Positions 40,434 through 64,000 are shown, numbered from the stretch's first letter. The stretch is 64,000 bases of DNA from Laetmonice hystrix (GCA_965235115.1 OZ249436.1:26104001-26168000), one strand, 5' to 3'. Numbers and translations: made by a program. Notes: generated from the sequence alone by a model not told the origin.

Positions 40434-40568
40434 AACGGTGTAGAGACAATAAGTGGACAGTAACTGGGACAAAATTCGGTGTCTGAAGGCTGTGTGGGGC
40501 GATCGACTCAGCCGAAGCTGTTAGCGGCAGCAGCGAGCACGTGGGACGGTAACACGTTATTATAGAGA

Positions 40569-43500
40569 ATGTCAGCGGCGAGTAAGGCTCGGGCGGCGGC
40601 CCGTGGGTGGGTTACCCGCGCAGCGGCCAGGCTAGCCACCCTGACGAAGGCGGAGTCAGTCGATCAGGAGGAGCTTCGGGATGCAATAGAGGAGTTCGAC
40701 AAGCGGCTCGGGAAACTGGACGATGTGCAAGGTGAGCTAGAGCTAGAGCTGACCGAGGAGGAATTGACGGCTGACATTAATGCTGCAGCTGACTTTCGTG
40801 ATGGTGCTCGGCGGGCCAGGCGGGCAGCCGCTAAGAGGGTGACGGGGGTAGCTCCGAAACAGAGTGACAGGCAGCCGCTCAGAGTCAGCACCGGTGTCGG
40901 TGAGTGCACCGAGGCTAGGCTACCTAAATTAGAGCTACCGTGCTTTGGTGGGGAGCCACTTCTCACTGGGGAGGCCAAGTGCTCGGTCCAGGGACTTTCT
41001 CTCACGGGGACCAACTATGGTGTCGCATGTAACCTACTGAGGGGGCGCTATGGACGGTCTGAGCGGATCATTTTCGCCCATGTGCAGCAGTTGTTGAACA
41101 TTGTGATACCCAAGCAGGCGAAGGTACCACTGCTGTGGACGGTGTATAATGAACTACAGGCCCACGTGAGGAGCTTGGAGTCCTTAGGGGTGTCAGGGAC
41201 CCAATATGGAGTCGTGCTTTGCCCTTTGATTTTGTCACGACTTCCCCCTGAGATGAGACTCCTCCAGTTCCTCCAGAGTTCCTCCAGCATGAGATAGAGA
41301 GGAGAGAACGGTCACAAACGTTTGGAAACTCGGGCTTCGAGGCAGCGGCAACTGAGAGGAAAAAACCTTCCGTCTCCATCCCTACTGCGGCGGCTCTACA
41401 TGTGTCTGCAGGAGGCTGTGTGTTGTGTGGACTCAATAGTCATCAGCTGTCTCAGTGCTACAAACTCACCAAGGCGCCTGTGAGGGAGCACAGGGAACTA
41501 CTACGCAGTAAAAATGTTTGTTTCAAATGTCTGCGTTTCGGACCAACTCACAGCTTTCGTAAATGTAAAGCGAAATGTAGCAGATGTAAAGATTTCCATC
41601 ATGTATTGTTGTGTGAAAATGATTCCAGACAAGATGTACCCCCTGTACCTGTACTTGTGACCCCCAATGAGTCTGAGCTTGTGAACCCTGAGGGTGTGAG
41701 TAGTCAAACAGGTGTGTCTTGTGAAAGTCACGACAGATCCAGAGTTATGTTACAGACCAGGCGTGTGAAAATCAGTGGGGTAAAGGGTGTCATGGAGGCA
41801 GTGGTGTTATTTGACAGTGGGTCACATAAGACGTACGTATCACAGAGAGTTGTAGAAAGGGTTGGCCCACAATGGCGTACTCGTGAGCCAGACGCGTATT
41901 CTTCCTTTGGTACTGTTGAGTCTAGTCGATCACAGGTGCGAAATGTGTACAATGTTCAATTGCAAGGTGTACAAGGTAACATTGAGAGTGTTGTGGCAGT
42001 AGAGATACCCGTGATATGTGCCCCCTTGGTTTGCCCCGCCATTCCCCCTGGAGTGTTGACCTCATTTGAGGGTAGTCTGGATGTGAGGGAGGTCTGTGCT
42101 GGGGAAAAGGTGGTGGTTGATGTGTTAATCGGGATGGACCACTATTGGAAGTTGATGACCCGCCGGGTTGTGGATTTGTCTCCAGGGTTGGTAGCCCAGG
42201 AGTCCCGCTTGGGATGGGTGGTGGCTGGGACCTTACCAAATGGGAATGGGGCCCCCCCTCCATCTTTCTCCCACCAGTTGTTTTGTGTCACGGAATCGTT
42301 GGACTCTGCCGTCAGGAATTTGTGGGAGCTGGATTCTCTCGGTATCAATGGAGGTAGTCTTCCTATAGTGGACCCGGTGATGTCCGAGTTTGAGGAAAAG
42401 GTTGTGTACGCTGATGGCAGGTATCAGGTGTCTTTGCCGTGGAGGAAACCCCGACCCCCCCTCTTGCTAGACAATGAGAAAGGAGCCATGTCCCGGTTAG
42501 AGCGGTTGTCCCTAAAGTTGTCAAAGGACCCTAAATTGGACAGGCAGTATCATAGGGTTTTCAAGGACTACTGGGAGGAGGGATTTATTGAGGAGGTTCC
42601 TCTAGAGGAGATGTCTACTGAACGGCGTGTCTATTACTTGCCGCATCGGCCAGTGGTTAAGGCGTCCAGTGAGACAACAAAGGTGAGGCCGGTGTTTGAT
42701 GCCTCTGCCCCTGGATACAACGGGGTGTCGCTGAATGATTGTTTGGAGGCAGGTCCGAGTCTGATCCCCAGTCTGGCAGGGATTTTGTTGCGCTTTAGGC
42801 GTTGGAAGGTAGCTGTGTGTGGTGACGTGACGAAGGCTTTCCTTCAGGTTGACGTATGCCCTGAGGATAGGGACGTACACCGATTTTTGTGGAAAGACGA
42901 AGGGACTATTCGGGTCATGCGGTTCCGAAGACTGCCCTTTGGGAATAAGAGCAGTCCCTTCCTTCTCAATGCTACGGTGAAGCACCACCTTGCTAGGTTT
43001 CCCCGTTCAAGGGTCATTGAAGAGTTGTTGGACAATCTCTACGTCGATGACTGGTTGTCAGGAGGGGACGATGAGGCTGAGGCCGGTTCTGCTGTGCGTG
43101 AGTCATGCGAGGTGATGGGTCAAGCAGGGATGACTCTGTCAAAATGGTGTTCTAACAGTCAGTTAGTTGGGGAGTTGGCGTCGTGTGAGTTCGCTGATGG
43201 GTCTATGGGATGTGAGGTTCATCGGATCTTGGGTCTGCGTTGGTTGGCGGGTGAAGACTGCTTCACTGAACTGCACTGAAGGCGTGTCAGTGCCTTATCA
43301 GTTGTGCATTATCAAACGTGTGATGCTCGGGTTTATTGCCCGTCTGTTCGATCCACTTGGGTTCCTCACCCCCTTTGCCATACATGCTAAGTGCATGTTT
43401 CAGGAGTTATGGCGGGAATGTGTTGGTTGGGATGAGGTGGTTCCTGATGGTATTCAGACCCTCTTCCTGGAGTGGGTTGAGGGACTGGAGGTTCTGCGTA

Positions 43501-45315
43501 CGTGGAAGATTCCACGTCGATACAGCGACATCTGCTGGAGAGATGTAGCTGACTTCCGGCTCCATGCCTTTGGAGATGCCTCTGAGGCGGCGTATGGAGC
43601 ATGTGTCTACCTCTGTATGCGAGGTTCTGATGGTAGGTGGCAGTCCTCTCTGGTCATGGCGACGGGCAAGGTCGCTCCTTTGAAGAGAGCTACACTGCCA
43701 CGGCTAGAGTTGTTGGGCGCTCTTTTGTGCGCAAGGCTGGTTATCTTCGTTCGCGAAGCCCTTCGGTTACCATACAGTATTGAGTATTGTTGTTGGACAG
43801 ATTCCACAATTGCCTTGTCTTGGATTCAGAGTTCTCCAAGCAAGTGGAAAGCGTTTGTGGGCAACAGGGTTGCTGAGATCCAAAGCTTGACGGACCCCGG
43901 TCGCTGGCTTCACTGCCCAGGCAAACAGAATCCGGCTGATCTTGTGACCAGGGGGATCTCTGCACAGGAGCTTGTCTCCTCCGATATGTGGCTGCAAGGC
44001 CCCGAGTTCATTCGTGAGTGTCAGGTTGTTTCGGTCGCGCCCCCCATGGAGATTGTGACGGTAGATCAGGGGGAGTCTTTGTCAGAGTCAGATCTTGTCC
44101 TGGTTGCTGTGGGAAAGGGGAGTGAACCGCCCTGGGAGTTGAACCGTTAGAGCAGTTTTCTTAAGGCGATCAGAGTCGTAGGTTGGGTGTTGAGATTCAA
44201 GGATAGCCTCCGGCGGTCAAAGGGCAGTAGGTGTTCAGGTGATTTGACATGGCAGGAGTTGTGTACCGCCAAAAGCACTCTGCTACGGGCTACTCAACAG
44301 GAGTATTATGGTGAGGAGTGCAGACGTCTAAAGACTGGCATGCCAATTTCCCGCGAGTCTCCCATCTTCAAGTTGAGCCCATTTGTTGATGATCAGGGGG
44401 TTTTGCGTGTTCAGGGAAGGCTTCACTTTGCTGAGCTCAGTTATGAGTCCAAACACCCCATCATTCTCCCCAAGTGTCACTTGAGTTTGTTGTTGATCCG
44501 CCACCTACATTGTTTGTTCAAACACGCTGGGGTGAATGCTCTGCTGGTCAAACTCCGAGATGATTATTGGGTTGTTGGAGCACGACGTATGTGCAAACGT
44601 GCCAGGCGTGAGTGTGTATCGTGTAGACGCCAGGATGCGGCTGCGGGTACTCAGACTATGGCCCCACTCCCCAAGGTAAGGGTCACACAGGCCCCAGTGT
44701 TCTCGGTGGTAGGACTGGATCATGGGGGGCCCTTGTATTGTGGTGATGAGGTGGGGAAGAAGTGGTATGTGCTGCTCTTCACATGTGGAGTTGTGAGAGC
44801 CATTCATTTGGAGTTGGTTGATTCCCTGTCGGCGGAAGCCACGTTGTCGGCAGTGCGCCGGTTTGTTGCACGTAGGGGTTTGCCATCGGTCATTATGTCA
44901 GATAATGCCCGTGGATTTGTTGCAGCCAAAGAGTTGGTTCTGAAGGTCTATGGTCCAGATGGGCCAGATTGGCAGTTCATTGTCCCCCGGGGCCCTTGGT
45001 GGGGAGGCTGGTGGGAACGTCTCATAGGGAGTGTGAAGTCAGCCTTGAAACGGTCAGTGGGCAGGAGGTCGCTTACGCGTGTTGAGCTGGAGACCTTCCT
45101 TCATGAAATTGAGGCTCTGTTGAACTCTCGGCCCCTCACGGTTGTCAGTGATGAAGTGGAAGATCCCAACCCGTTGACTCCAGCACATTTTCTGATAGGG
45201 CGTCCCTTGATTGGTGGTTCCCCTAAGGTGGATTCAGAAGATGTCGGTGTTCAGGCTCCTGATTTGGTGCCTCTGCGAGCACATCAAGAGCAGTTACTTG
45301 GGCTGTTTTGGGACC
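40569..45315 (+). pseudogene. BEL/Pao gag-pol polyprotein, disrupted
   Basis: ARLPKLELPCF gag; three Cys/His knuckles; protease LFDSGS; RT RLPFG and NLYVDD; RNase H FGDASE, LPRLEL, WTDS, NPAD; integrase GLDHGGP, MSDNA, WWERLI. Frameshifts near 41280 and 43270, in-frame TAG at 44148, apparent gag deletions. Confidence 0.92.
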
Positions 45316-45530
45316 TGATTGGCCCATCGAAAACATGGACGCAAACGAGGTATAGTTCCGTACCCTCCGTATTTCTCCAACAAGACACAAATATTTTCGT
45401 CAATCCCTTTAAAATACAAGTGTTAAATGTCCTCGCTTTTCTGGATGTAAACATAGCGTCAGCAGTCCCCACACCTGCTACGGTCTGCATACGCAGGGGC
45501 ATGTTGCTATTGTTGGCCACTCCCGGCCAC

Positions 45531-46232
45531 GGACTCGTACTTAAAGTCGACCTCTCAAGTGGCACCAAGAGAGTCAGGCTGCCCCCAGGGACCCCCTATG
45601 GGAGGGAACCAAACCAAAACCATCCCATCACCTCCCCCTTGACCTAGGCTAGGCCTAGACCTAAGATTGTCCCCATCTAATCATTTCTAGGTAGGCGGAC
45701 TCGTACTTAAGGCCGACCTCTCAAGTGGCACCAAGAGAGTCAGGCTGCCCCCAGGGGCCCCCTATGGGAGGGAACCAAACCAAAGCCATCCCATCACCTC
45801 CCCCTTGACCTAGGCTAGGCCTAGACCTAAGATTGTCCCCATCTAATCATTTCTAGGTAGGCGGACTCGTACTTAAAGTTGACCTCTAAAGTGGCACCAG
45901 GAGAGTCAGGCTGCCCCCAGGGGCCCCCTATGGGAGGGAACCAAACCAAAACCATCCCATCACCTCCCCCTTGACCTAGGCTAGGCCTAGACCTAAGATT
46001 GTCCCATCTAATCATTTCTAGGTAGGCGGACTCGTACTTAAAGTCGACCTCTCAAGTGGCACCAGGAGAGTCAGGCTGCCCCCAGGGGCCCCCTATGGGA
46101 GGGAACCAAACCAAAACCATCCCATCACCTCCCCCTTGACCTAGGCTAGGCCTAGACCTAAGATTGTCCCAATCTAATCATTTCTAGGTAGGCGGACTCG
46201 TACTTAAACATCGACCTCGTCAGGCTGCCCCC
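45531..46232 (+). repeat. 166-bp satellite, ~4.2 copies
   Basis: GGACTCGTACTTAA at 45531, 45697, 45863, 46028, 46194. Confidence 0.95.
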
Positions 46233-55350: not shown

Positions 55351-55377
55351 ACTTCCGGCAATATATGACTTCCGGCA
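55351..55377 (+). promoter_or_regulatory. Tandem ETS-type motifs (ACTTCCGG x2) ~70-95 bp upstream of the MED9 ATG
   Basis: TACTTCCGGCAATATATGACTTCCGGC. ETS/GABP motifs are typical of animal housekeeping promoters; function is inferred. Confidence 0.45.
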
Positions 55378-55444
55378 TATTCGACTGGCTCTTAACGGAG
55401 TGAAGGTCAGGTGGACTAACCGGTCGATCGTAGCCGTAAGGGTC

Positions 55445-58400
55445 ATGGCTAATGTGGATTTGAGCTTCTTACCTCTCGTGTATGATATATTGAAGGGGTA
55501 GGTTGTATTGTGGCGAATCACGTTTTCAATGTAAACATGTTTAGCCCCCAAACGGGGGGCTTGTAATACTGTATTGTAATATGATGTAGGTGCCAGGGTT
55601 GGACAAATTATTTTACGAGTCACTGGGTCCGCACTACTTCTACTAGTCCAAAAATCCACAAATTCATGGAGTGTTTATGGAAATGTTAAGATTGCCATCA
55701 TCACTGCCATTAGCATTACTGGCCACAGACCTCCAGGTTCCTTGGAGGATGGAGGTTTGTGACCTGCTACAAGCCGGTGTCGCGGTCTCAGATCTCCGTT
55801 GGTCTCAGAACTCCGGGGGCATGGTTTCCTATTGTTTAGATGCTGAATCTGACTAAAGGCTAACACACACACTGCGACTGCTTGCAACTCCTTGCAACTC
55901 CTTGCGACGCGACCGTCGTGACCCAGTTTTTGACCCGAGCTCATCTACACAGGACGGAATGGAGTCTTGCGACCGTCGCAGAGGTTCTGGCACTGTCAGA
56001 ACGTCTGCGACGGTCGCAGGCTGTTGCAGGCCACTCATTGCCATAGCGACGGACCGTCGTGAGACCGTCGTGCGACGGGTAATCGCATTGTGTGTGTTGG
56101 CCTTAAGTGAGCACGCGCGAGTCGCTGTTTGGGCTCACACCTCCGGTCGTCTGCTAGCTGATGGGCGGTGGAGTTTTCTTCCAAACAAGACTAAAGGACA
56201 GTCTGGATAGGTAAACTGTAAACCAAGTATTGTAGAGGAGATGAGAGTTATTACGTGTGACTCAACTGAGAGCTGATATTTCGGATAGTTAACGTTAGAC
56301 TAGAACACACGGCGATGCAGCTAACCTCCCGGAGTTCTGAGACCACGGAGATCTGAGACCGCGACACCGGGGCCCAGGTTTTTTTGTTTTGTGCTCACCA
56401 TGAGCTGAGCTGAGCAAGGTTGAGCATAGTCCGGCGGGTTGCACTAACGGTCCTACAGGTTAGGACTGAATTTAGGACAGGTCCTACTGAGTGTCATGCC
56501 CCCTAAGCACTTCATATCTATTTGAGTTTGAATAGCCCTTGAGATATAAAAGTTGACGAATTACATTTAAATTATGGATATTGGCCCCTGTTGAATGTAT
56601 GACTGGTCCTAAATTCAGTCCTAACCCGTAGGACCGTTACCACCCCAGGAACCTAGACCCTGTTCTGCGGAACAGTCCTATTGTCATCACTCAGATACTG
56701 TGACGTCACAATACTTTTGGAACTCTTCTAGATTTAAAGAGACGCGTCACTTTTCTCAGTGGCGCCACCTCGTGGCAATTGACGAACTCTATTTTTACAC
56801 GTTGCAACGCGTTTTTTACGTCACTCATGCTGTCAACAACACGGCAATGCAGAGGCAGAGTCAAGTCTGGCCGCTTCGCATCCCAGAAACAGTTTGACAA
56901 AAGGCTTCACGATGCCAGAAAAATGTACTTGACTATGTGTTTTAACATTGGAGTCTATGGGACCGATAAGACCCTTGGTAGTGAAAATGTCGATATCTCA
57001 TGAATTTCCATGGTGACATATGATTTTTTTTAATCTAAAGTGTTCAAAACAAGTCATGCAACAATTCTGAGAAGTATTTTCAGAATCTCTGGGTTAGAAA
57101 TGTCTGAAAAAAATCTTCTCTCTTCTAATTCGAACCAAAAATTTCACGTATCTCTCTCTACTGTAGACTGTAGTAGTGCGAGTTGAAGGCCTATCTTCAA
57201 ATGCTCATAACTCAGGATCCGATATGGTGACCTGCCATTTTCTTTGCACCAAAATACTCGAAAAATGTAGAATTATTTTATGTGAAAGTAGCCTGAAAAT
57301 CTCTGGGTCAGAAATTTTTGGCTTATTGGTGTCGAGTCCCTTTAATCAAGAGTGCCTCATTTCTAACGTCACAATAGTGGCAGACATGCCTTGTGCCAGT
57401 GGCCACAGTGTCACAATGGCATGGGACACAGTGGACATTGTCAACGTTTTTTTAAGCAACAGGCTCTTCTAGAAATCTTTTTTAATTTCAGAAACGATAT
57501 TTGCACGCTTGTGGAGATCAACATTCCACTTCCCGTGGTCAAAATAAGTAACAGAAAGGAAGAAAAAAATTATGTAAATTTGACTGAAATTCTCCCTTGC
57601 TCACCACACCTTGAGACAGGTTCTTAACTTGCTCAGGCTGACATGCTCACTGTCAGCTTGCTCACCGTGAGCACACCTCACGGAAAAAAAAAACAAACCG
57701 AAACCGGTGAGCATGAGCTCATGCTCACCCTTGCTCACGTTGGAAAATTTTATAAACAAAAAAACCGGGCCCTGGTCCTGACAGTGACAGATCTATACCA
57801 CCTGTCAATGACAGTAGGTTTAACCAAGAGTGGGCAAGAGTCCGTCGGACTACCATTGATATATTTTCACAAGTCTGAAGCAATAATAGGCAGGTCCCGG
57901 ACCTCGGGCTAGTGGATTTGTCCAACCCTGGGTGCTAGAGGGCGAGCCCAGCAATGGGAGGCCTACAATATATACTATAAGTATAATATAACAATGTCAG
58001 GACTGGTCACTTAGCAGCACGGACGTCGGGATATTGTGGCGTCACAGTGAATAAACACTCACTGTGACGTCACAAATCACACACGCTCTGCAAGGGTCAC
58101 ATGACCCTCCATGGAGAAAGTTTCTCCATGGATTTGCTCCATGGTTTTTCCGGTTCCGGTTTTACGTGACGAATTTTTTTTGTGAGACGGTATGTGTCAC
58201 CTTGGCTACCCTTTCACGCGTGTTGTCAGAGAGCTTGCTGCGCGGCTCGCTGCGCTCGCTATAACATAACATGCTGTAACGTCATAGGACCCTAATTCGC
58301 CACCAAAAACAATATATTTACCGATACTCATAATTGAACAATTATTTAAGTCATGATTGTTGCACCCTCAAATGTAAAAATTCCGTTAAATGTAAAAACA

Positions 58401-61400
58401 CAGGACTTCATATGTAACAAATATTTAGGACAAATGTGAAAACGTCTGTCAAATGTGAAAAAATCTACCGCATAATGTAAAAACTACCTTACGTCAAATG
58501 TAAAAATAATTTACGCTAAATGTGAAAAAAATATTTTACTACATATGTGCAAAACTTTTATGACAAATGTAAAAAAGGACTTTTTACTTCGATTACCAAA
58601 GATCTATAGGTTATTACTTTATATACTCCCTCGATATATACAGTCGGCCCAGAAAATATGAATGGAAGCTGCATATTTCAGATCAGTCCCACAGAAATTT
58701 GAACTTCACCCACATCCAAATGTTAAACTAAGGAACTTAGTGGGAGGTTTCTGTTGCTGCAGTATATTGTGGTATACAGTATAAATAAGACTGAAATGAA
58801 AACAAACTTTCTTTTATGTTTAACTTTCAATATAATTTATATTTAAATATCAACAAATAATACATCAGTGCAAGTCTCGACAATGACTACATGTACTTAA
58901 GAATAAGAGTGTTAAAAGCAATTAGATAAGAAATTACCTTTGCAAGTGAACACTTGCATTTTAAAATAAAGATCAACTTATCTAACCTGAGGCCATTAAA
59001 GGAATGTTTTTCTTGAGCTAAATCATATAACTGACTGTTTTTTTCTTTTGAAATGCACGGGCATCAGGGGTAACCCAATTACTTTGACAATGTCCCTAAA
59101 GAGAAAAGTTGTATCCTCTACAGGAATCGAACCCAGGCCCTAAGATTACTGCACCCATTCGCATAGCATAAGGTGTCGACATCCATGCCCACTAGGCCAC
59201 CGCCACTCCCCTAAAAAAAGGAGCTTTGGTGGTCGAGCAGGACAATGGACCCTCCCCCCTACACACATCTTTTTGAAATGAGACGGAATCCATATTTTCC
59301 TAGTTAGAGCTACACATGATTTCTACCGAACATTGACTGTTAAGGTAATCCTGGCACTGGCGTAGACTGTATTTTTCTTTTGAAATGCACGGGCATCAGG
59401 GGTAACCCAATTACTTTGACAATGTCCCTAAAGAGAAAAGTTGTATAGTCCTCTACAGGAATCGATCCCAGGCCCTAAGGTTACTGCACCCATTCGCATA
59501 GCATAAGGTGTCGACATCCATGCCCACTAGGCCACCGCCACTCCTCTAAAAAAAGGAGCTTTGGTGGTCGAGCAGGACAATGGACCCTCCCCCCTACACA
59601 CATCTTTTTGAAATGAGACGGAATCCATATTTTCCTAGTTAGAGCTACACATGATTTCTACCGAACATTGACTGTTAAGGTAATCCTGGCACTGGCGTAG
59701 ACTGTATTTTTCTTTTGAAATGCACGGGCATCAGGGGTAACCCAATTACTTTGACAATGTCCCTAAAGAGAAAAGTTGTATAGTGTACCGCACCTGACTA
59801 GTGATTAGGCCCCTATATACCCCTCCTGACTGTACTGATTAGGCCCCGAAAATATCCCACCTCACTATTGATTAGGCCTATATACCCCACCTTACTGTAG
59901 TGCTTAGGACCTTATGTACCGCACCTGACTAGTGATTAGGTCCCTATATACCCCTCCTGACTGTTTTTTTTCTTTTGAAATGCACGGGCATCAGGGGTAA
60001 CCCAATTACTTTTGACAATGTCCCTAAAGAGAAAAGTTGTATAGTCCTCTACGGGAATCGAACCCCGGCCCTAAGATTACTGCACCCATTCGCATAGCAT
60101 AAGGTGTCTACACCCATGCCCACTCGGCTTATATACCCCACCTGACAGTAGTGCTTAGGACCTTATGTACCTCATGGACCTCATGTTAATAGCATTTAAC
60201 GGTTAGTAGCATTTTGTGGTGAAAATTTTAGGCAGATAGGCCCAAAACTCTTTTATGTGGAAACAAATCAAACATCACATGTCGAAAAAAGGCAATGCCG
60301 GAGAGCTATGCAAGTGTCACCCACCTATTTCAGTTAAAAAGGAAAAGGTGATCGATGTAACCCCCATTCTGTTCACTGTTCACACACAGCCCTTAGTCTC
60401 TTCTGGAATATCCCGGCTGACTTCCTGACTTCTTCTAGAGTAATTCCCTCCCACCTTTCCTGAATTTTCTCCTTCAGTTCATTCTTGGCGAATTTTTGTT
60501 TGTGACCTTTATAGACTTTTTCAGACAGGGAATCCCAAATGGTGCCCATGGGGTTTAAGTCGGGATTGGCCACCAGTGTTTGGCAGGGGGCATTTCATAC
60601 ATTTGACGTCACGTCATTAAGACAAAGTGGCAACAACCCTGCCTTAATTGGGACACACACCAAGAAAACTGGGTCATTAAACGCGACGGGAGGGCAGTTT
60701 TTCAGGGCAGTTCCCTGCTTAAAAGACATGCAGCTTCACGCTAATGACCCTGGTCCGGCATTGCAATTTTTGACACGAATTTTTAGAAATGGCACTATTT
60801 GTAGACGTTTTGACCCATTTATCTGAAATTTGTACCACAGACCCCAAATAACTAGCTGATATCATGTTACAAATATTATGACATTGGGGTAACAATTGTA
60901 GAAATTACAGTCAAGAAAAGAGTGTTCCAAAATTTTTAGGCCCACCTTTGACCTTGTGACGAGGTTACGACAACATCACATTGTAACCAGCACAGTGGTT
61001 AAACAGAGGATCTGGTTGGGGGTACAGGAGAGGCAAAGCTCAAACGTGACAAACCCCCAAGCTTAGGTAATTTAGGCTATTTTAGAGCCTTATCTCTTTT
61101 TTTTAATTTAAAAAAAAAAAAATTACCCTGCCTCCCTGGGGTTCATCGGCACCGCTGGTTTTCTTTGATCCCCAGCTCAATGTTGGGCAATGCTGGGCAC
61201 TGTCTGGATGCGGTCCGCCGCCCACAACCTGTTGCCTGAGCCTGTCCGCTAAGCGCTTGCCGGGGAGCTGATAGAATCAGCAGTCGATCTAGAGTAGAGT
61301 CTAGAATAAGATCTAGGGCCTAGACATCCTAAAAACAGGATCCTAAGTAATGTATAGTTTTGATCTAGGCTAATCAGTCTAGTAAAACTGACCTTGGCTT

Positions 61401-62516
61401 GACTGTACTGTAGACAGTCTGTAGACGTAGCAGTAGAGTACAGTAGCCTGGATAGTTGTACACTGCCCAGTGCAATCCTCTGTAAAATCATGTCGTGCAC
61501 ACAGCACACTTCGTCCACACTACCACAGTGTGTTCTTTCCTTGTCCTTTGGCCATTCAAATATTGTTTACTGCTAGAATGGCTGCAAAACATAGCCACAC
61601 ACCGACTCGGCATGTGGGATCTGGTAGGTCCTGACAGCAAGCGTGCCGAGCGGTGTTCTGACTATGTCGTCATGCGCCGAAGTTTGCCGAAAAGAGCCGA
61701 TTAATAGCAACCCGTATCTAGGGGCCTGTTGCTATGGAATATCAGTGCTATTTTTTGCAATATCTCAGAAATAGTGCAATGTATTTTTAAAATTCCAACG
61801 CCAACATTGTTAGGAATAGGATCTGAATTTTATTACATCAGAAAAACGACTCTGCACAAGCGCTTTAAATGCAATTTGCATGCAGTTAGTCTAAATCAAA
61901 GGCATAGCTAACGTCCGGCACTGCCCCGTATGTAGTGGCCACTTAACGTTTCAGTCCAAAACAAAGCTGACGCGCATGCACGCAGTATATATGTCAAAGT
62001 ATCACATCAGTAAACACTTGCCACATTCCTTCAGTAAGACAAGGAGCTGTCAAAAGGTTTCTGAATCTTGTGGAAATTGGTAGTTATATGTCTCTACGGT
62101 AGTGTTAAAAGTTTTGAATGTGCACTATCACATTAGTCACCTTGCAATATATGTGGACAGTCATATCATCATCATATTCAAGATGGAAAGGCCATTTCCT
62201 TTGAGAAAATGAAAAAAACCTTCATATCTAATGGTGACCCCCCTTAATAAGAAAATACCTTTTCTACAAGTCTCTTCAGTACATGTTTTCTCCCAATTTC
62301 AGTGTGGAACGAGAGCCGCATGAGGTAACACAAAAAGTAAATGATCTGAGGAACAAGTTGGACCGAGCCAGGGAACAGGTGAAGAAACTCCCAGGAATTG
62401 AGCACAGTCAGGAGGAACAGGAACGGCAAATAGAAGTCCTGCGTAAACAGTTGGTCTCAAAAACAGACCTACTGCGCCGTTATAAAAACATGTGCAACTT
62501 TGACATACCTAAGTGA
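55445..62516 (+). CDS. MED9: Mediator complex subunit 9; join(55445..55497, 62303..62516), 88 aa
   Basis: Exon 1 MANVDLSFLPLVYDILKG|GTAGGT, phase 2, joins TTTCAG|T-VEREPHEVTQKVNDLRNKL...LPGIEHSQEEQ...KTDLLRRYKNMCNFDIPK*. Matches MED9 motifs (FLPL, PGI..S.EEQ, LL..YK..C.F.IPK). Confidence 0.9.
55778..56366. mobile_element. Ginger1-like MITE with CCGG TSD (MED9 intron)
   Basis: CCGG|TGTCGCGGTCTCAGATCTCCG ... CGGAGATCTGAGACCGCGACA|CCGG; ~40-bp TIRs. Confidence 0.8.
55857..56103. mobile_element. Harbinger-like MITE nested in the Ginger1-like MITE
   Basis: TAA|AGGCTAACACACAC ... GTGTGTTGGCCT|TAA. Confidence 0.75.
56370..57772. mobile_element. Harbinger-like element (GGGCCC..GGTTTTT termini, GCTCACC repeats) with nested inserts
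   Basis: Inverted ends GGGCCCAGGTTTTTTTGTTT / AAACAAAAAAACCGGGCCC; includes a hairpin MITE at ~56436-56647. Confidence 0.55.
56738..57341. mobile_element. Kolobok-like MITE
   Basis: TTAA|AGAGACGCGTCAC ... GTGTCGAGTCCCT|TTAA. Confidence 0.65.
59037..60130 (-). repeat. ~333-bp tandem repeat containing a tRNA-like (A/B box) module
   Basis: GAAATGCACGGG at 59050, 59382, 59717, 59977. Minus strand carries TGGCCTAGTGG and GGTTCGATTCC followed by TTTT. Confidence 0.75.
60343..60573 (-). pseudogene. Tc1/mariner transposase C-terminal fragment
   Basis: NPDLNPMGTIW (cf. SPDLNPIENIW) ...ELKEKIQERW...RLRAVCEQ. A 7-bp duplication breaks the tail NGGYIDHLF. Confidence 0.8.
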
Positions 62517-62597
62517 ATATTTAACGGTATTTGCACTTCATTAACAGTTTTTCTGATTTTGTTCCCGACTTGTATCTTCACGAATTCTTAATTTACT

Positions 62598-63137
62598 ATG
62601 GATGTCAAATGTGGCGAGGATCAGCATTCTATTTTTAAAAAGGATCCTAAAGAGTGGATGCAGTATGTACACAAGGAAGTTTTGGTAACAACCACCAGAG
62701 GCATTGAACACAGTGGTTGGGTTTACACAATCGATCCTGTCTCAGAGACAGTTATACTAGTTAATTTCTGCCACCAAAATGAAAGGAAAGCCAAACTGGA
62801 AATGGTCATAGGGCATGCCATTCTTTCAATCACAGTGACAAACGAGGATGTAGAGAGGCATCGAGGGGAGATGGAAAAACTGTTCCAAGCAGAAGACATG
62901 CTCAGTATGTCGCCAGATGAACTCAAGAAGAAACGGCACCAGGTGAAATCTTGGCTGATCAAGAACAGGGTGCCTGTAGAACTATGTGGGAGGAATGGAG
63001 ATGTGCTCAACATCTCTGATGCTTTGTTCATTGAACCCCCTTATGGCTCTGACAGCTGTCGAAGTTCAAACGAAATTATTCTCGGCAGAATTCAAGGTCT
63101 TCTAAAAAATATGCCGTCCGATGTTGAGGATTGGTAG
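62598..63137 (+). CDS. GEMIN6: Gem-associated protein 6 (SMN complex), intronless ORF, 179 aa
   Basis: Motifs KDPKEW..YVHKEV, GWVYTIDPVS..VILVNF, GHAI, WLIKNRVPV, IEPPY...CRSSNEIILGRIQGL match Gemin6. Confidence 0.92.
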   Translation: MDVKCGEDQHSIFKKDPKEWMQYVHKEVLVTTTRGIEHSGWVYTIDPVSETVILVNFCHQNERKAKLEMVIGHAILSITVTNEDVERHRGEMEKLFQAEDMLSMSPDELKKKRHQVKSWLIKNRVPVELCGRNGDVLNISDALFIEPPYGSDSCRSSNEIILGRIQGLLKNMPSDVEDW

Positions 63138-63233
63138 GATTGAAAGTCAGTCTGGACAGTTGCATGTAAAATGTGTGATTTTAAGAAAAGGTCATCTGTT
63201 AAGGCATGAACGTGTTTTATGTGTAAATGAGGA

Positions 63234-63239
63234 AATAAA
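63234..63239 (+). terminator. Polyadenylation signal AATAAA downstream of GEMIN6
   Basis: AATAAA about 100 nt after the GEMIN6 stop. Confidence 0.55.
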
Positions 63240-63616
63240 AGTGATGAGTGAGCTTGGTCTTTATCACTATTAAATGTATTAACAAGGGATATTATGAAGT
63301 TTAGGGTTGTAATCTTTTTCTGTTTCATTTTTTAACCCTGGATCCATTGTTATTAAATGATGTGTTGGCGGAATTCAAGTAAAATATAGTATATATATAG
63401 GGGTTGGGGAGAAAAATTGGACTGACAGAGGTTGACCTGCAAGTGCTACCCCCTTGATCTGGCAAAAATGTATTTTTCGGGTGGGCCTTAAAATTTTGGA
63501 ACACTCTTTTCTTGACTGTAACTTCTATAATTTTTACCCCAATGTCATAATAATGATGGAACATGATACCATCTTGTTAATTGGAGCATGTAGTACAGTC
63601 TAAAAATAGGGTCATT

Positions 63617-63803
63617 TTAAAAACTGCATGTCAAATATTGCAATGCTCGACCATGCGTTTTCGGCAGAGTTGGTCCTGCTGTGTCTGGCACACGCTTTGC
63701 TTGACTATAGCTTTTTAGTCCAGTCATTCTATCGCCAAATGGGCTGGACATGGAACAAATTGCAACAGAATTTCTTTTTGTAGAAATGACATCTACATAC
63801 ACC
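63617..63803 (-). CDS. Putative terminal coding exon of an unidentified convergent gene
   Basis: Polypyrimidine acceptor TTTTTTTTCTGTGCTACTAG, then an open frame VYVDVISTKRNSVAICSMSSPFGDRM...LQYLTCSF* in non-repetitive sequence. Confidence 0.4.
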
Positions 63804-64000
63804 CTAGTAGCACAGAAAAAAAAGTCGAAAAAAAAGATGGGGAAAGAGTTTTTAAAATTGAGTTGAAAATTTGTCTATTTTATCACTTTTTGCAGCTGTT
63901 TTGAGGGGTGCTTTACCTTGTATTTCTTATTTTGTAGGCTCTGTTACTCCTATTTTAGACCAAATAATGCTCAGTCCCAATAAAACAAATCGTTGTCCCA

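Follow-up and report, generated by a model that had tools for sequence, protein, structure and literature searches.

Dicistronic cellular mRNAs that are conserved over animal phyla have rarely been documented. In Drosophila, MED9 is listed as 'di/polycistronic only' and lies 28 nucleotides (nt) upstream of CG42518 (FlyBase 6.04; entry in PMC4528330 File S1). For the mammalian pairs SNURF-SNRPN, RPP14-HsHTD2 and CERS1-GDF1 translation is thought to proceed by leaky scanning and/or reinitiation, according to the section of PMC4705651 that treats them, and passages of PMC11291117 on green algae report that the output of the second open reading frame (ORF) goes up with a weak start of the first ORF and down with added upstream AUGs. 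Here we analyze the genes MED9 and GEMIN6 in a window of Laetmonice hystrix DNA, i.e. the whole stretch of 64,000 nt (GCA_965235115.1 OZ249436.1:26104001-26168000), in which GEMIN6 follows MED9 on the same strand.

Our central conclusion, to which we assign a probability of about 0.65, is that GEMIN6 is translated from an mRNA shared with MED9. MED9 belongs to Mediator and GEMIN6 to the SMN complex, so that two core machines without relation to each other meet in this pair; in humans the two genes are unlinked. Dicistronic mRNAs are a known kind; the MED9-GEMIN6 pair is new, and it is notable for its conservation across phyla. A literature search returned no report of MED9-GEMIN6 linkage or of a shared transcript, most subscription papers and the gene-pair supplements of PMC3514665 being outside that search; the main text of this microsynteny survey contains no di/bicistronic terms.

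Locus architecture and transcript

The coding sequence (CDS) of MED9 consists of exon 1 (55445-55497) and exon 2 (62303-62516), which after splicing amount to 267 nt or 88 amino acids (aa) with one terminal stop, TGA at 62514-62516. Exon 2 alone matches Pfam Med9 (PF07544; E 6.9e-20, 71.3 bits versus a cut-off of 26.9). The intronless GEMIN6 ORF (62598-63137, 179 aa) matches Gemin6 (PF06372; E 1.9e-14, 53.9 versus 23.9 bits) and Gemin6_C (PF20417; E 9e-22, 77 versus 33.4 bits), and both domains occur in 48 out of 48 GEMIN6 homologues. The nearest homologue is 70% identical over the full length; the nearest named ones come from scallop, Owenia and other lophotrochozoans (53-57% identity). No MED9 relatives were found in prokaryote and viral collections.

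The spacer between the ORFs (62517-62597) measures 81 nt, so that both ORFs lie in the same frame, and has T at 38 of its 81 positions (47%). It contains no ATG, no AATAAA or ATTAAA and none of ten variant polyadenylation (poly(A)) hexamers, and has a single AG at 62546-62547 and a TAA in frame at 62589; in total the interval between MED9 and GEMIN6 holds two in-frame stops. The first AATAAA or ATTAAA 3' of the exon-2 acceptor is the AATAAA at 63234, behind GEMIN6 (none within 62303-63234). Folding of 62480-62640 yielded z = -0.03 and no structured or internal ribosome entry site (IRES)-like element, and the window has no Rfam matches. The first-pass annotation, which had described an 88-aa MED9 ORF, a complete intronless GEMIN6 starting 81 nt behind its stop on the same strand, a U-rich spacer with an in-frame TAA and free of start codons and poly(A) signals, and an AATAAA downstream, was accurate in all the features that it lists. 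The features are listed below (the X4 contig is the spliced contig described further on).

55351..55375, + strand: two ACTTCCGG motifs (sequence search; putative function)
55419..55497, + strand: MED9 exon 1, part of the 5' untranslated region (UTR) and CDS 55445-55497; start context AGGGTC-ATG-G, phase-2 GT donor at 55498
55498..62302, + strand: MED9 intron of 6.8 kb with repeats; GT...TTTCAG, missing from the X4 contig
62303..62516, + strand: MED9 exon 2 CDS with TGA, start of the shared last exon; Pfam Med9, covered by the X4 contig
62517..62597, + strand: inter-ORF spacer of 81 nt, U-rich, ATG-free, unstructured; crossed by the X4 contig without mismatch or gap
62598..63137, + strand: GEMIN6 ORF, 179 aa, intronless; start context TTTACT-ATG-G, Pfam Gemin6 and Gemin6_C
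63234..63248, + strand: AATAAA at 63234-63239, with the shared mRNA probably ending near 63248; first canonical hexamer, end of the X4 contig

The motif ACTTCCGG occurs twice just 5' of exon 1 (55351 and 55368) and within the window at exon 1 only; its reverse complement lies 60 nt 5' of the MED9 start in L039, one of the related loci discussed below. We take ACTTCCGG to be an ETS-type element of housekeeping promoters, and the pair upstream of exon 1 is likely the shared promoter of MED9 and GEMIN6. In the genome (627 Mb, 35 contigs) GEMIN6 has one match, as has the whole locus, and Med9 also has one (12 candidates scored); these searches score the best candidates only, and a highly diverged second copy could escape them. 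With one genomic match per gene, GEMIN6 must come from the MED9-GEMIN6 locus.

Contigs of four runs (X1-X4) of one sample, with a library type not on record, were aligned to 61000-64000. Those of X1-X3 are unspliced (61840-63504/63506). X4 provides one contig of 1,025 nt (depth 251.5), of which 947 letters correspond to 62302-63248 without mismatches or gaps, and the 30 displayed letters of the remaining 78-nt loose part are MED9 exon 1; the 5' end of exon 1 at 55419 holds only if the other 48 letters are colinear. The contig joins exon 1 to exon 2, spans the spacer and GEMIN6, and stops at 63248, 9 nt past the AATAAA, a 3' end read from the contig stop, with no poly(A) letters displayed. Because its contig is spliced, X4 was called RNA-like, presumably a transcriptome. 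X4 depth is 0 over 61909-62211, within the intron, and over 63323-63423.

A second species contributes L002, a contig of 1,104 nt with an uninterrupted 88-aa MED9 followed by GEMIN6, without the intron seen elsewhere, which looks like a second spliced MED9-GEMIN6 transcript. A spliced transcript over both ORFs is thereby found twice, at contig level and in one sample each. The spliced contig, together with the short gaps found across phyla, supports one mRNA with both ORFs. Of the first-pass proposal that one mRNA encodes both proteins, the shared mRNA is supported at contig level, and translation of GEMIN6 from it keeps the probability given above. The main MED9 mRNA would include all of GEMIN6 and end 9 nt after the AATAAA. 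In the FlyBase sense the pair qualifies as dicistronic at contig level, with two conserved, unrelated, non-fused ORFs on one strand and a spliced span across them.

The same contig bears on a different source of GEMIN6. A minor splice variant could destroy the MED9 ORF and leave a functionally monocistronic GEMIN6 mRNA, the candidate sites being a donor 4 nt past 55497 and the AG of the spacer (62547). There is a precedent in fly CG42518, whose monocistronic form carries the remark 'splice variant disrupts 5' CDS' (entry in PMC4528330 File S1), and the exon-1 donor (55498-55505, GTAGGTTG) indeed has a second GT 4 nt on, the use of which would end MED9 after 18 codons (TAG). Rare isoforms moreover drop out of contigs. 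However, the X4 contig is unbroken and uses the canonical junction, and no other joins in exon 2, spacer or GEMIN6 are found among all 7 X4 records. Joining exon 1 to 62548 is out of frame, as annotated before, and creates a 47-codon ORF that runs over the GEMIN6 ATG; a conserved in-frame acceptor is lacking, with 0 out of 20 AGs suitable in the window and scattered positions in relatives. We regard such a variant as clearly improbable. A shared first exon giving an in-frame exon-1-GEMIN6 protein was considered separately and rejected, as none of the 20 AGs in the window is an in-frame, stop-free acceptor.

Pairing of MED9 and GEMIN6 in other animals

The first-pass annotation had named synteny and spacer length in related genomes as a check. 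Using an alignment of 38 GEMIN6 sequences we found 60 GEMIN6 loci in metagenome contigs, and ran a MED9 profile built from 120 homologues on the sequence upstream of them. MED9 lies immediately 5' of GEMIN6 on the same strand in 13 out of 60 loci, corresponding to 10 out of 18 clusters at 65% GEMIN6 identity. Twelve of the MED9 matches have E <=3e-10; L024, cut by the contig end, has 2e-3. The distances from MED9 stop to GEMIN6 start are 2 nt (L054), 11 nt (L017, L055), 28 nt (L056-L058, each), 31 nt (L003), 32 nt (L004), 40 nt (L039), 56 nt (L002, L024), 255 nt (L007) and 718 nt (L041), i.e. 2-56 nt in 11 out of 13 linked loci, with all three frames represented. In L017 and L055 the sequence TGATG lets an in-frame GEMIN6 ATG overlap the MED9 stop. 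In L041 a GT donor lies 16 nt past the MED9 stop and an acceptor 24 nt ahead of the GEMIN6 ATG; the intron predicted from them would, once removed, shorten the gap from 718 to 40 nt and eliminate both AATAAA along with the ATGs in between. That MED9 and GEMIN6 recur in this order, on one strand and at short distance, in 13 out of 60 loci is an argument that the pairing is more than chance.

Concerning the origin of these loci, L017 belongs to the annelid Paralvinella palmiformis, the named GEMIN6 and MED9 of which it matches at 100%; both proteins have consecutive accessions (KAK2169424.1, KAK2169425.1) and are assigned to a contig of equal length. L054-L058 are closest to a Bugula neritina cluster and are taken as bryozoans. 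L007 falls in a clade of 24 rows (SH-aLRT 96) that holds all named bivalve and gastropod proteins, in a GEMIN6 tree which is a quick version with many open forks. Five more MED9/GEMIN6 protein pairs lie on contigs of equal size (140,994; 5,048,976; 130,565; 1,104; 1,103), of which the 1,104 contig is L002 and the rest are circumstantial. Judging by its distribution, the pairing probably goes back at least to the common ancestor of annelids, bryozoans and molluscs, and some lineages would have lost or loosened it.

Some side observations concern the individual loci. Early in the bryozoan-like GEMIN6, ATTAAA or AATAAA occupies a homologous spot (G-L/I-N codons; gap +16 in L054, gap +45 in L056-L058). 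L007, L041 and L054-L058 have GEMIN6 introns 3' of the MED9 stop, so that a shared mRNA would be subject to junction-dependent decay if GEMIN6 were not translated by ribosomes. L040 and L043 have the GEMIN6 start context A[AC]ATGGCGG, which we assume to be typical of promoter-proximal first exons, and no MED9 in their short upstream stretch; they may represent a monocistronic GEMIN6 state.

The gap lengths also speak to the first-pass suggestion of an operon resolved at TTAACAG (62541-62547), in which a spliced leader would be trans-spliced to GEMIN6 and MED9 cleaved just upstream. The spacer does offer its one AG, and a short leader would be clipped as an assembly tip; 48 letters at the 5' end of the X4 contig are not displayed. 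On the other hand, MED9 has no poly(A) signal of its own between 62303 and 63234, in relatives the gap shrinks to 11 or 2 nt or stop and start overlap, and a splice to this AG opens the out-of-frame ORF over the GEMIN6 start described above, with none of the 20 AGs in frame and stop-free. The contig passes the site unbroken, and a join at 62548 is not among the 7 X4 records, as far as contigs, which drop short tips, can tell. For an annelid, PMC7854359 moreover reports a lack of trans-splicing and operons, 'similar to other annelids', and among animals as a whole their occurrence is patchy (survey text of PMC12460157). We therefore consider this proposal highly improbable.

A MED9-GEMIN6 fusion protein, made by read-through of the stop or by a splice that skips it, appears similarly remote. 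It could draw on the shared frame of the ORFs in the window (gap 81) and on two database models that contain both Pfam families, KAF6028202.1 (276 aa) of the bryozoan Bugula and KAK2180125.1 (247 aa) of the annelid Ridgeia. Yet the window has its two in-frame stops, the X4 contig retains the spacer, and the gaps of relatives fall into all three frames. In the Ridgeia model the final 11 residues of MED9, which Lamellibrachia does have, are missing, as is the nearly invariant H-x-x-F of GEMIN6; the joints in Bugula and Ridgeia differ, and the MED9 profile matches 0 out of 193 other GEMIN6 proteins. We read both models as adjacency plus annotation error. The pairing thus exposes a mode of annotation error by which public models fuse both proteins. 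Bugula has, besides KAF6028202.1, a separate GEMIN6 model on another contig.

Proposed translation of the second reading frame

For GEMIN6 translated from a shared mRNA we propose the following course. One promoter 5' of 55419 would give rise to one pre-mRNA; after splicing of the intron and cleavage behind the AATAAA at 63234 an mRNA of ~1.0 kb would result, with MED9 first and GEMIN6 second as in the contig. MED9 would be made by ordinary cap-dependent scanning at a strong AUG. Small subunits might remain on the mRNA after MED9 terminates, cross the short, unstructured spacer and initiate again at the following AUG; some might instead miss the first AUG of MED9 and work their way through the four out-of-frame ORFs of 2-3 codons each that lie within MED9 of the window. 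A Mediator subunit would thereby be coupled to an SMN-complex subunit made at a lower, fixed level. Yeast Med9 is reported to bind eIF4E (abstract-level statement in PMC13467561), and such binding could be a possible feedback route.

Reinitiation after the MED9 ORF is a serious candidate for this step, at somewhat less than an even chance. In all 6 loci where the start of MED9 is seen, position -3 is a purine, and in 5 of these 6 position +4 is G. By the vertebrate consensus, which may not be the species' own, this is a strong start context, and such a context favors reinitiation over pure leak. The short gaps, the TGATG overlaps and the unstructured spacer also fit reinitiation. Stop and restart codon overlap in L017 and L055 and are 2 nt apart in L054, but L007 separates them by 255 nt and the window by 81 nt.

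Leak past the MED9 AUG combined with hopping over the small upstream ORFs (uORFs) we consider unlikely. Neither a weak first start nor a scarcity of upstream AUGs, which characterize leaky scanning of the algal type, is found here. The strong MED9 start, the six ATGs and the missing ATG depletion argue against simple leaky scanning of that type. The earlier statement that a short first ORF permits reinitiation or leaky scanning therefore holds better for its first part than for its second. An out-of-frame ORF that starts inside the MED9 CDS and covers the GEMIN6 start occurs in 0 out of 8 transcript models, an outcome that chance alone would give 70% of the time. The internal Met content does not separate linked MED9 from arthropod MED9.

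A long mRNA with a strong MED9 start and without ATG depletion would be a poor template for leaky scanning, and this speaks for another explanation, namely that the long mRNA makes MED9 only, with the GEMIN6 ORF as part of its 3' UTR, and that GEMIN6 protein comes from a shorter mRNA with an internal promoter in the spacer or in exon 2 of MED9. The X4 contig is blind to a nested start, as this would cause no branching in the assembly. In flies, 114 out of 159 dicistronic loci have at least one monocistronic alternative (figures taken from PMC4528330). Against this stand the observed/expected CpG ratio of 0.27-0.58 over 62000-63200 versus 0.81 around exon 1, a weak hint, and the restriction of both ACTTCCGG motifs to exon 1. 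The sequence GCGCATGC at 61972, inside the MED9 intron, had been named as an example of a separate start region for GEMIN6, but the X4 stretch without cover includes this site (absence from contigs being weak evidence). Moreover, an independent promoter does not need gaps held at 2-56 nt in 11 out of 13 loci. We judge an internal promoter, though it is the strongest competitor of our reading, to be distinctly unlikely.

Several observations weigh against translation of GEMIN6 from the shared mRNA and have to be kept in mind. A contig across two genes is not proof of a single molecule, and here it comes from one sample with an unrecorded library type; contigs show no single molecules, starts or strands, and miss rare isoforms as well as short 5' tips. 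Six ATGs, counted from the start of MED9, precede the spacer of the window. Out-of-frame ATGs are not depleted in MED9 (17 observed versus 11.1 expected in the 8 transcript models, compared to synonymous recoding), and a shortening of the internal ORFs is not significant against the same recoding (p 0.10-0.17). TGGGA, the DNA form of UGGGA, the upstream motif of viral reinitiation systems that pairs with 18S rRNA, is missing in the window, and of the 13 loci 1 has it at a distance of at most 120 nt from the GEMIN6 start. The first ORF of 88 codons exceeds the limit of 55 codons predicted for reinitiation in one viral mRNA (cited in the text of PMC4705651). Among the relatives, the gap of L007 (255 nt) holds three ATGs and those of L002, L039 and L056 one each, and AATAAA or ATTAAA lies inside the GEMIN6 part of L003, L004, L017, L024, L054 and L056-L058, which makes MED9-only 3' ends possible there.

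The pairing is also not universal, as 47 out of 60 GEMIN6 loci have no MED9 upstream. These comprise an unplaced clade of 29 loci with <=4 kb upstream examined, whose inspected members have a splice acceptor shortly 5' of the ATG; a clade of 8 loci, the representative of which groups with insects (<=4 kb examined); 3 loci with only a 31-residue match; and 7 loci with <700 nt before the first matched piece. In 31 open segments upstream of unlinked GEMIN6, within 4-kb flanks, no MED9 was found, and the one match was a retroelement domain.

One candidate signal was tried and dropped: the internal MED9 ORFs are short compared to GEMIN6 (median 3 versus 13.5 codons, p 2e-4), which did not persist against synonymous recoding.

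Taken together, the loci form a natural set of spacers, from stop-start overlap through 2, 11, 28-56 and 81 to 255 nt, plus one with a predicted intron. Along with lineages where the genes are separated, this set offers a test of ribosome access to a second ORF behind a first one of 88 codons.

Surrounding repeats and comparison with known systems

In the MED9 intron (59033-60174) lies a 335-bp tandem repeat with 2.3 copies, 98% alike, and a further partial copy; tRNA-like A and B boxes on its minus strand suggest that it is probably a tRNA-derived short interspersed element (SINE). Inverted-repeat pairs at 55774-57794, 60874-60946 and 63480-63552, with the 63480 arm at very high copy in the DNA-like runs, are probably miniature transposons. 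Further away, 40566-45647 (+ strand) contains a Pao/BEL-type long terminal repeat (LTR) retrotransposon in several frames, with matches to DUF1759, reverse transcriptase, Peptidase_A17 and integrase zinc-binding domains, and 895-2592 (− strand) a 335-aa YqaJ-like nuclease ORF (E 8.3e-22), preceded by a Cys/His-rich segment, which is probably a DNA-transposon gene. Just downstream of the window (L064:2147-3214) there is a Ty3/gypsy capsid-like ORF with a zinc knuckle.

Compared to known systems, the locus resembles the green-algal bicistrons in its short first ORF (267 nt versus a median of 291 nt in Auxenochlorella), its short spacer (algal median 40 nt) and the lack of a conserved structure (values from portions of PMC11291117). 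It differs from them in two points: the loci in which the MED9 start was seen have a strong one, and there is no depletion of internal ATGs. With the spliced-leader operons of nematodes, tunicates, rotifers and chaetognaths it has in common that housekeeping genes lie on one strand <250 bp apart (as outlined in PMC12460157). Those operons are cut to single-gene mRNAs, whereas the spliced contig of our locus retains both ORFs, with no intervening poly(A) signal.

SNRPN of the mammalian SNURF-SNRPN pair is, like GEMIN6, presumably a Sm-fold protein. The products of MOCS2 form one enzyme, whereas MED9 and GEMIN6 sit in different complexes. Both cases are related to ours in other respects: the small and large MOCS2 subunits are a deeply conserved bicistronic precedent (mentioned in PMC4528330), and SNURF-SNRPN, RPP14-HsHTD2 and CERS1-GDF1 each encode, on a single processed mRNA, two conserved proteins that are unrelated or act separately (examples given in PMC4705651). 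The mammalian bicistrons concern other genes and another lineage, and MED9-GEMIN6 can be traced over three invertebrate phyla.

In the Drosophila MED9-CG42518 pair, as in ours, MED9 is the first ORF of a dicistronic mRNA, with a short gap and a different second protein. It differs in that the second gene is annotated as CG42518, and in its annotated monocistronic splice variant. Gemin6 is reported as lost in Drosophila (passage in PMC6385987), and where PMC4978919 and 10.1101/2024.05.17.594696 mention CG42518 in the portions consulted, they state no product. Protein-atlas look-ups returned no fly-specific Gemin6-like cluster. A bolder version of our reading would have an obligate dicistronic mRNA since the ancestor of annelids, bryozoans and molluscs or earlier, with GEMIN6 made only by post-termination reinitiation behind a functional ORF of 88 codons, without a viral-type motif, and Mediator supply coupled to snRNP assembly; we think this rather unlikely. 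Taken furthest, it would make CG42518 a refilled slot or a diverged Gemin6, and MED9 would then have been dicistronic since the protostome ancestor. Should CG42518 be an unrecognized, diverged Gemin6, the reported loss in Drosophila would be reopened. As the MED9 of the fly is dicistronic too, the comparison raises the question why MED9 repeatedly heads two-gene mRNAs.

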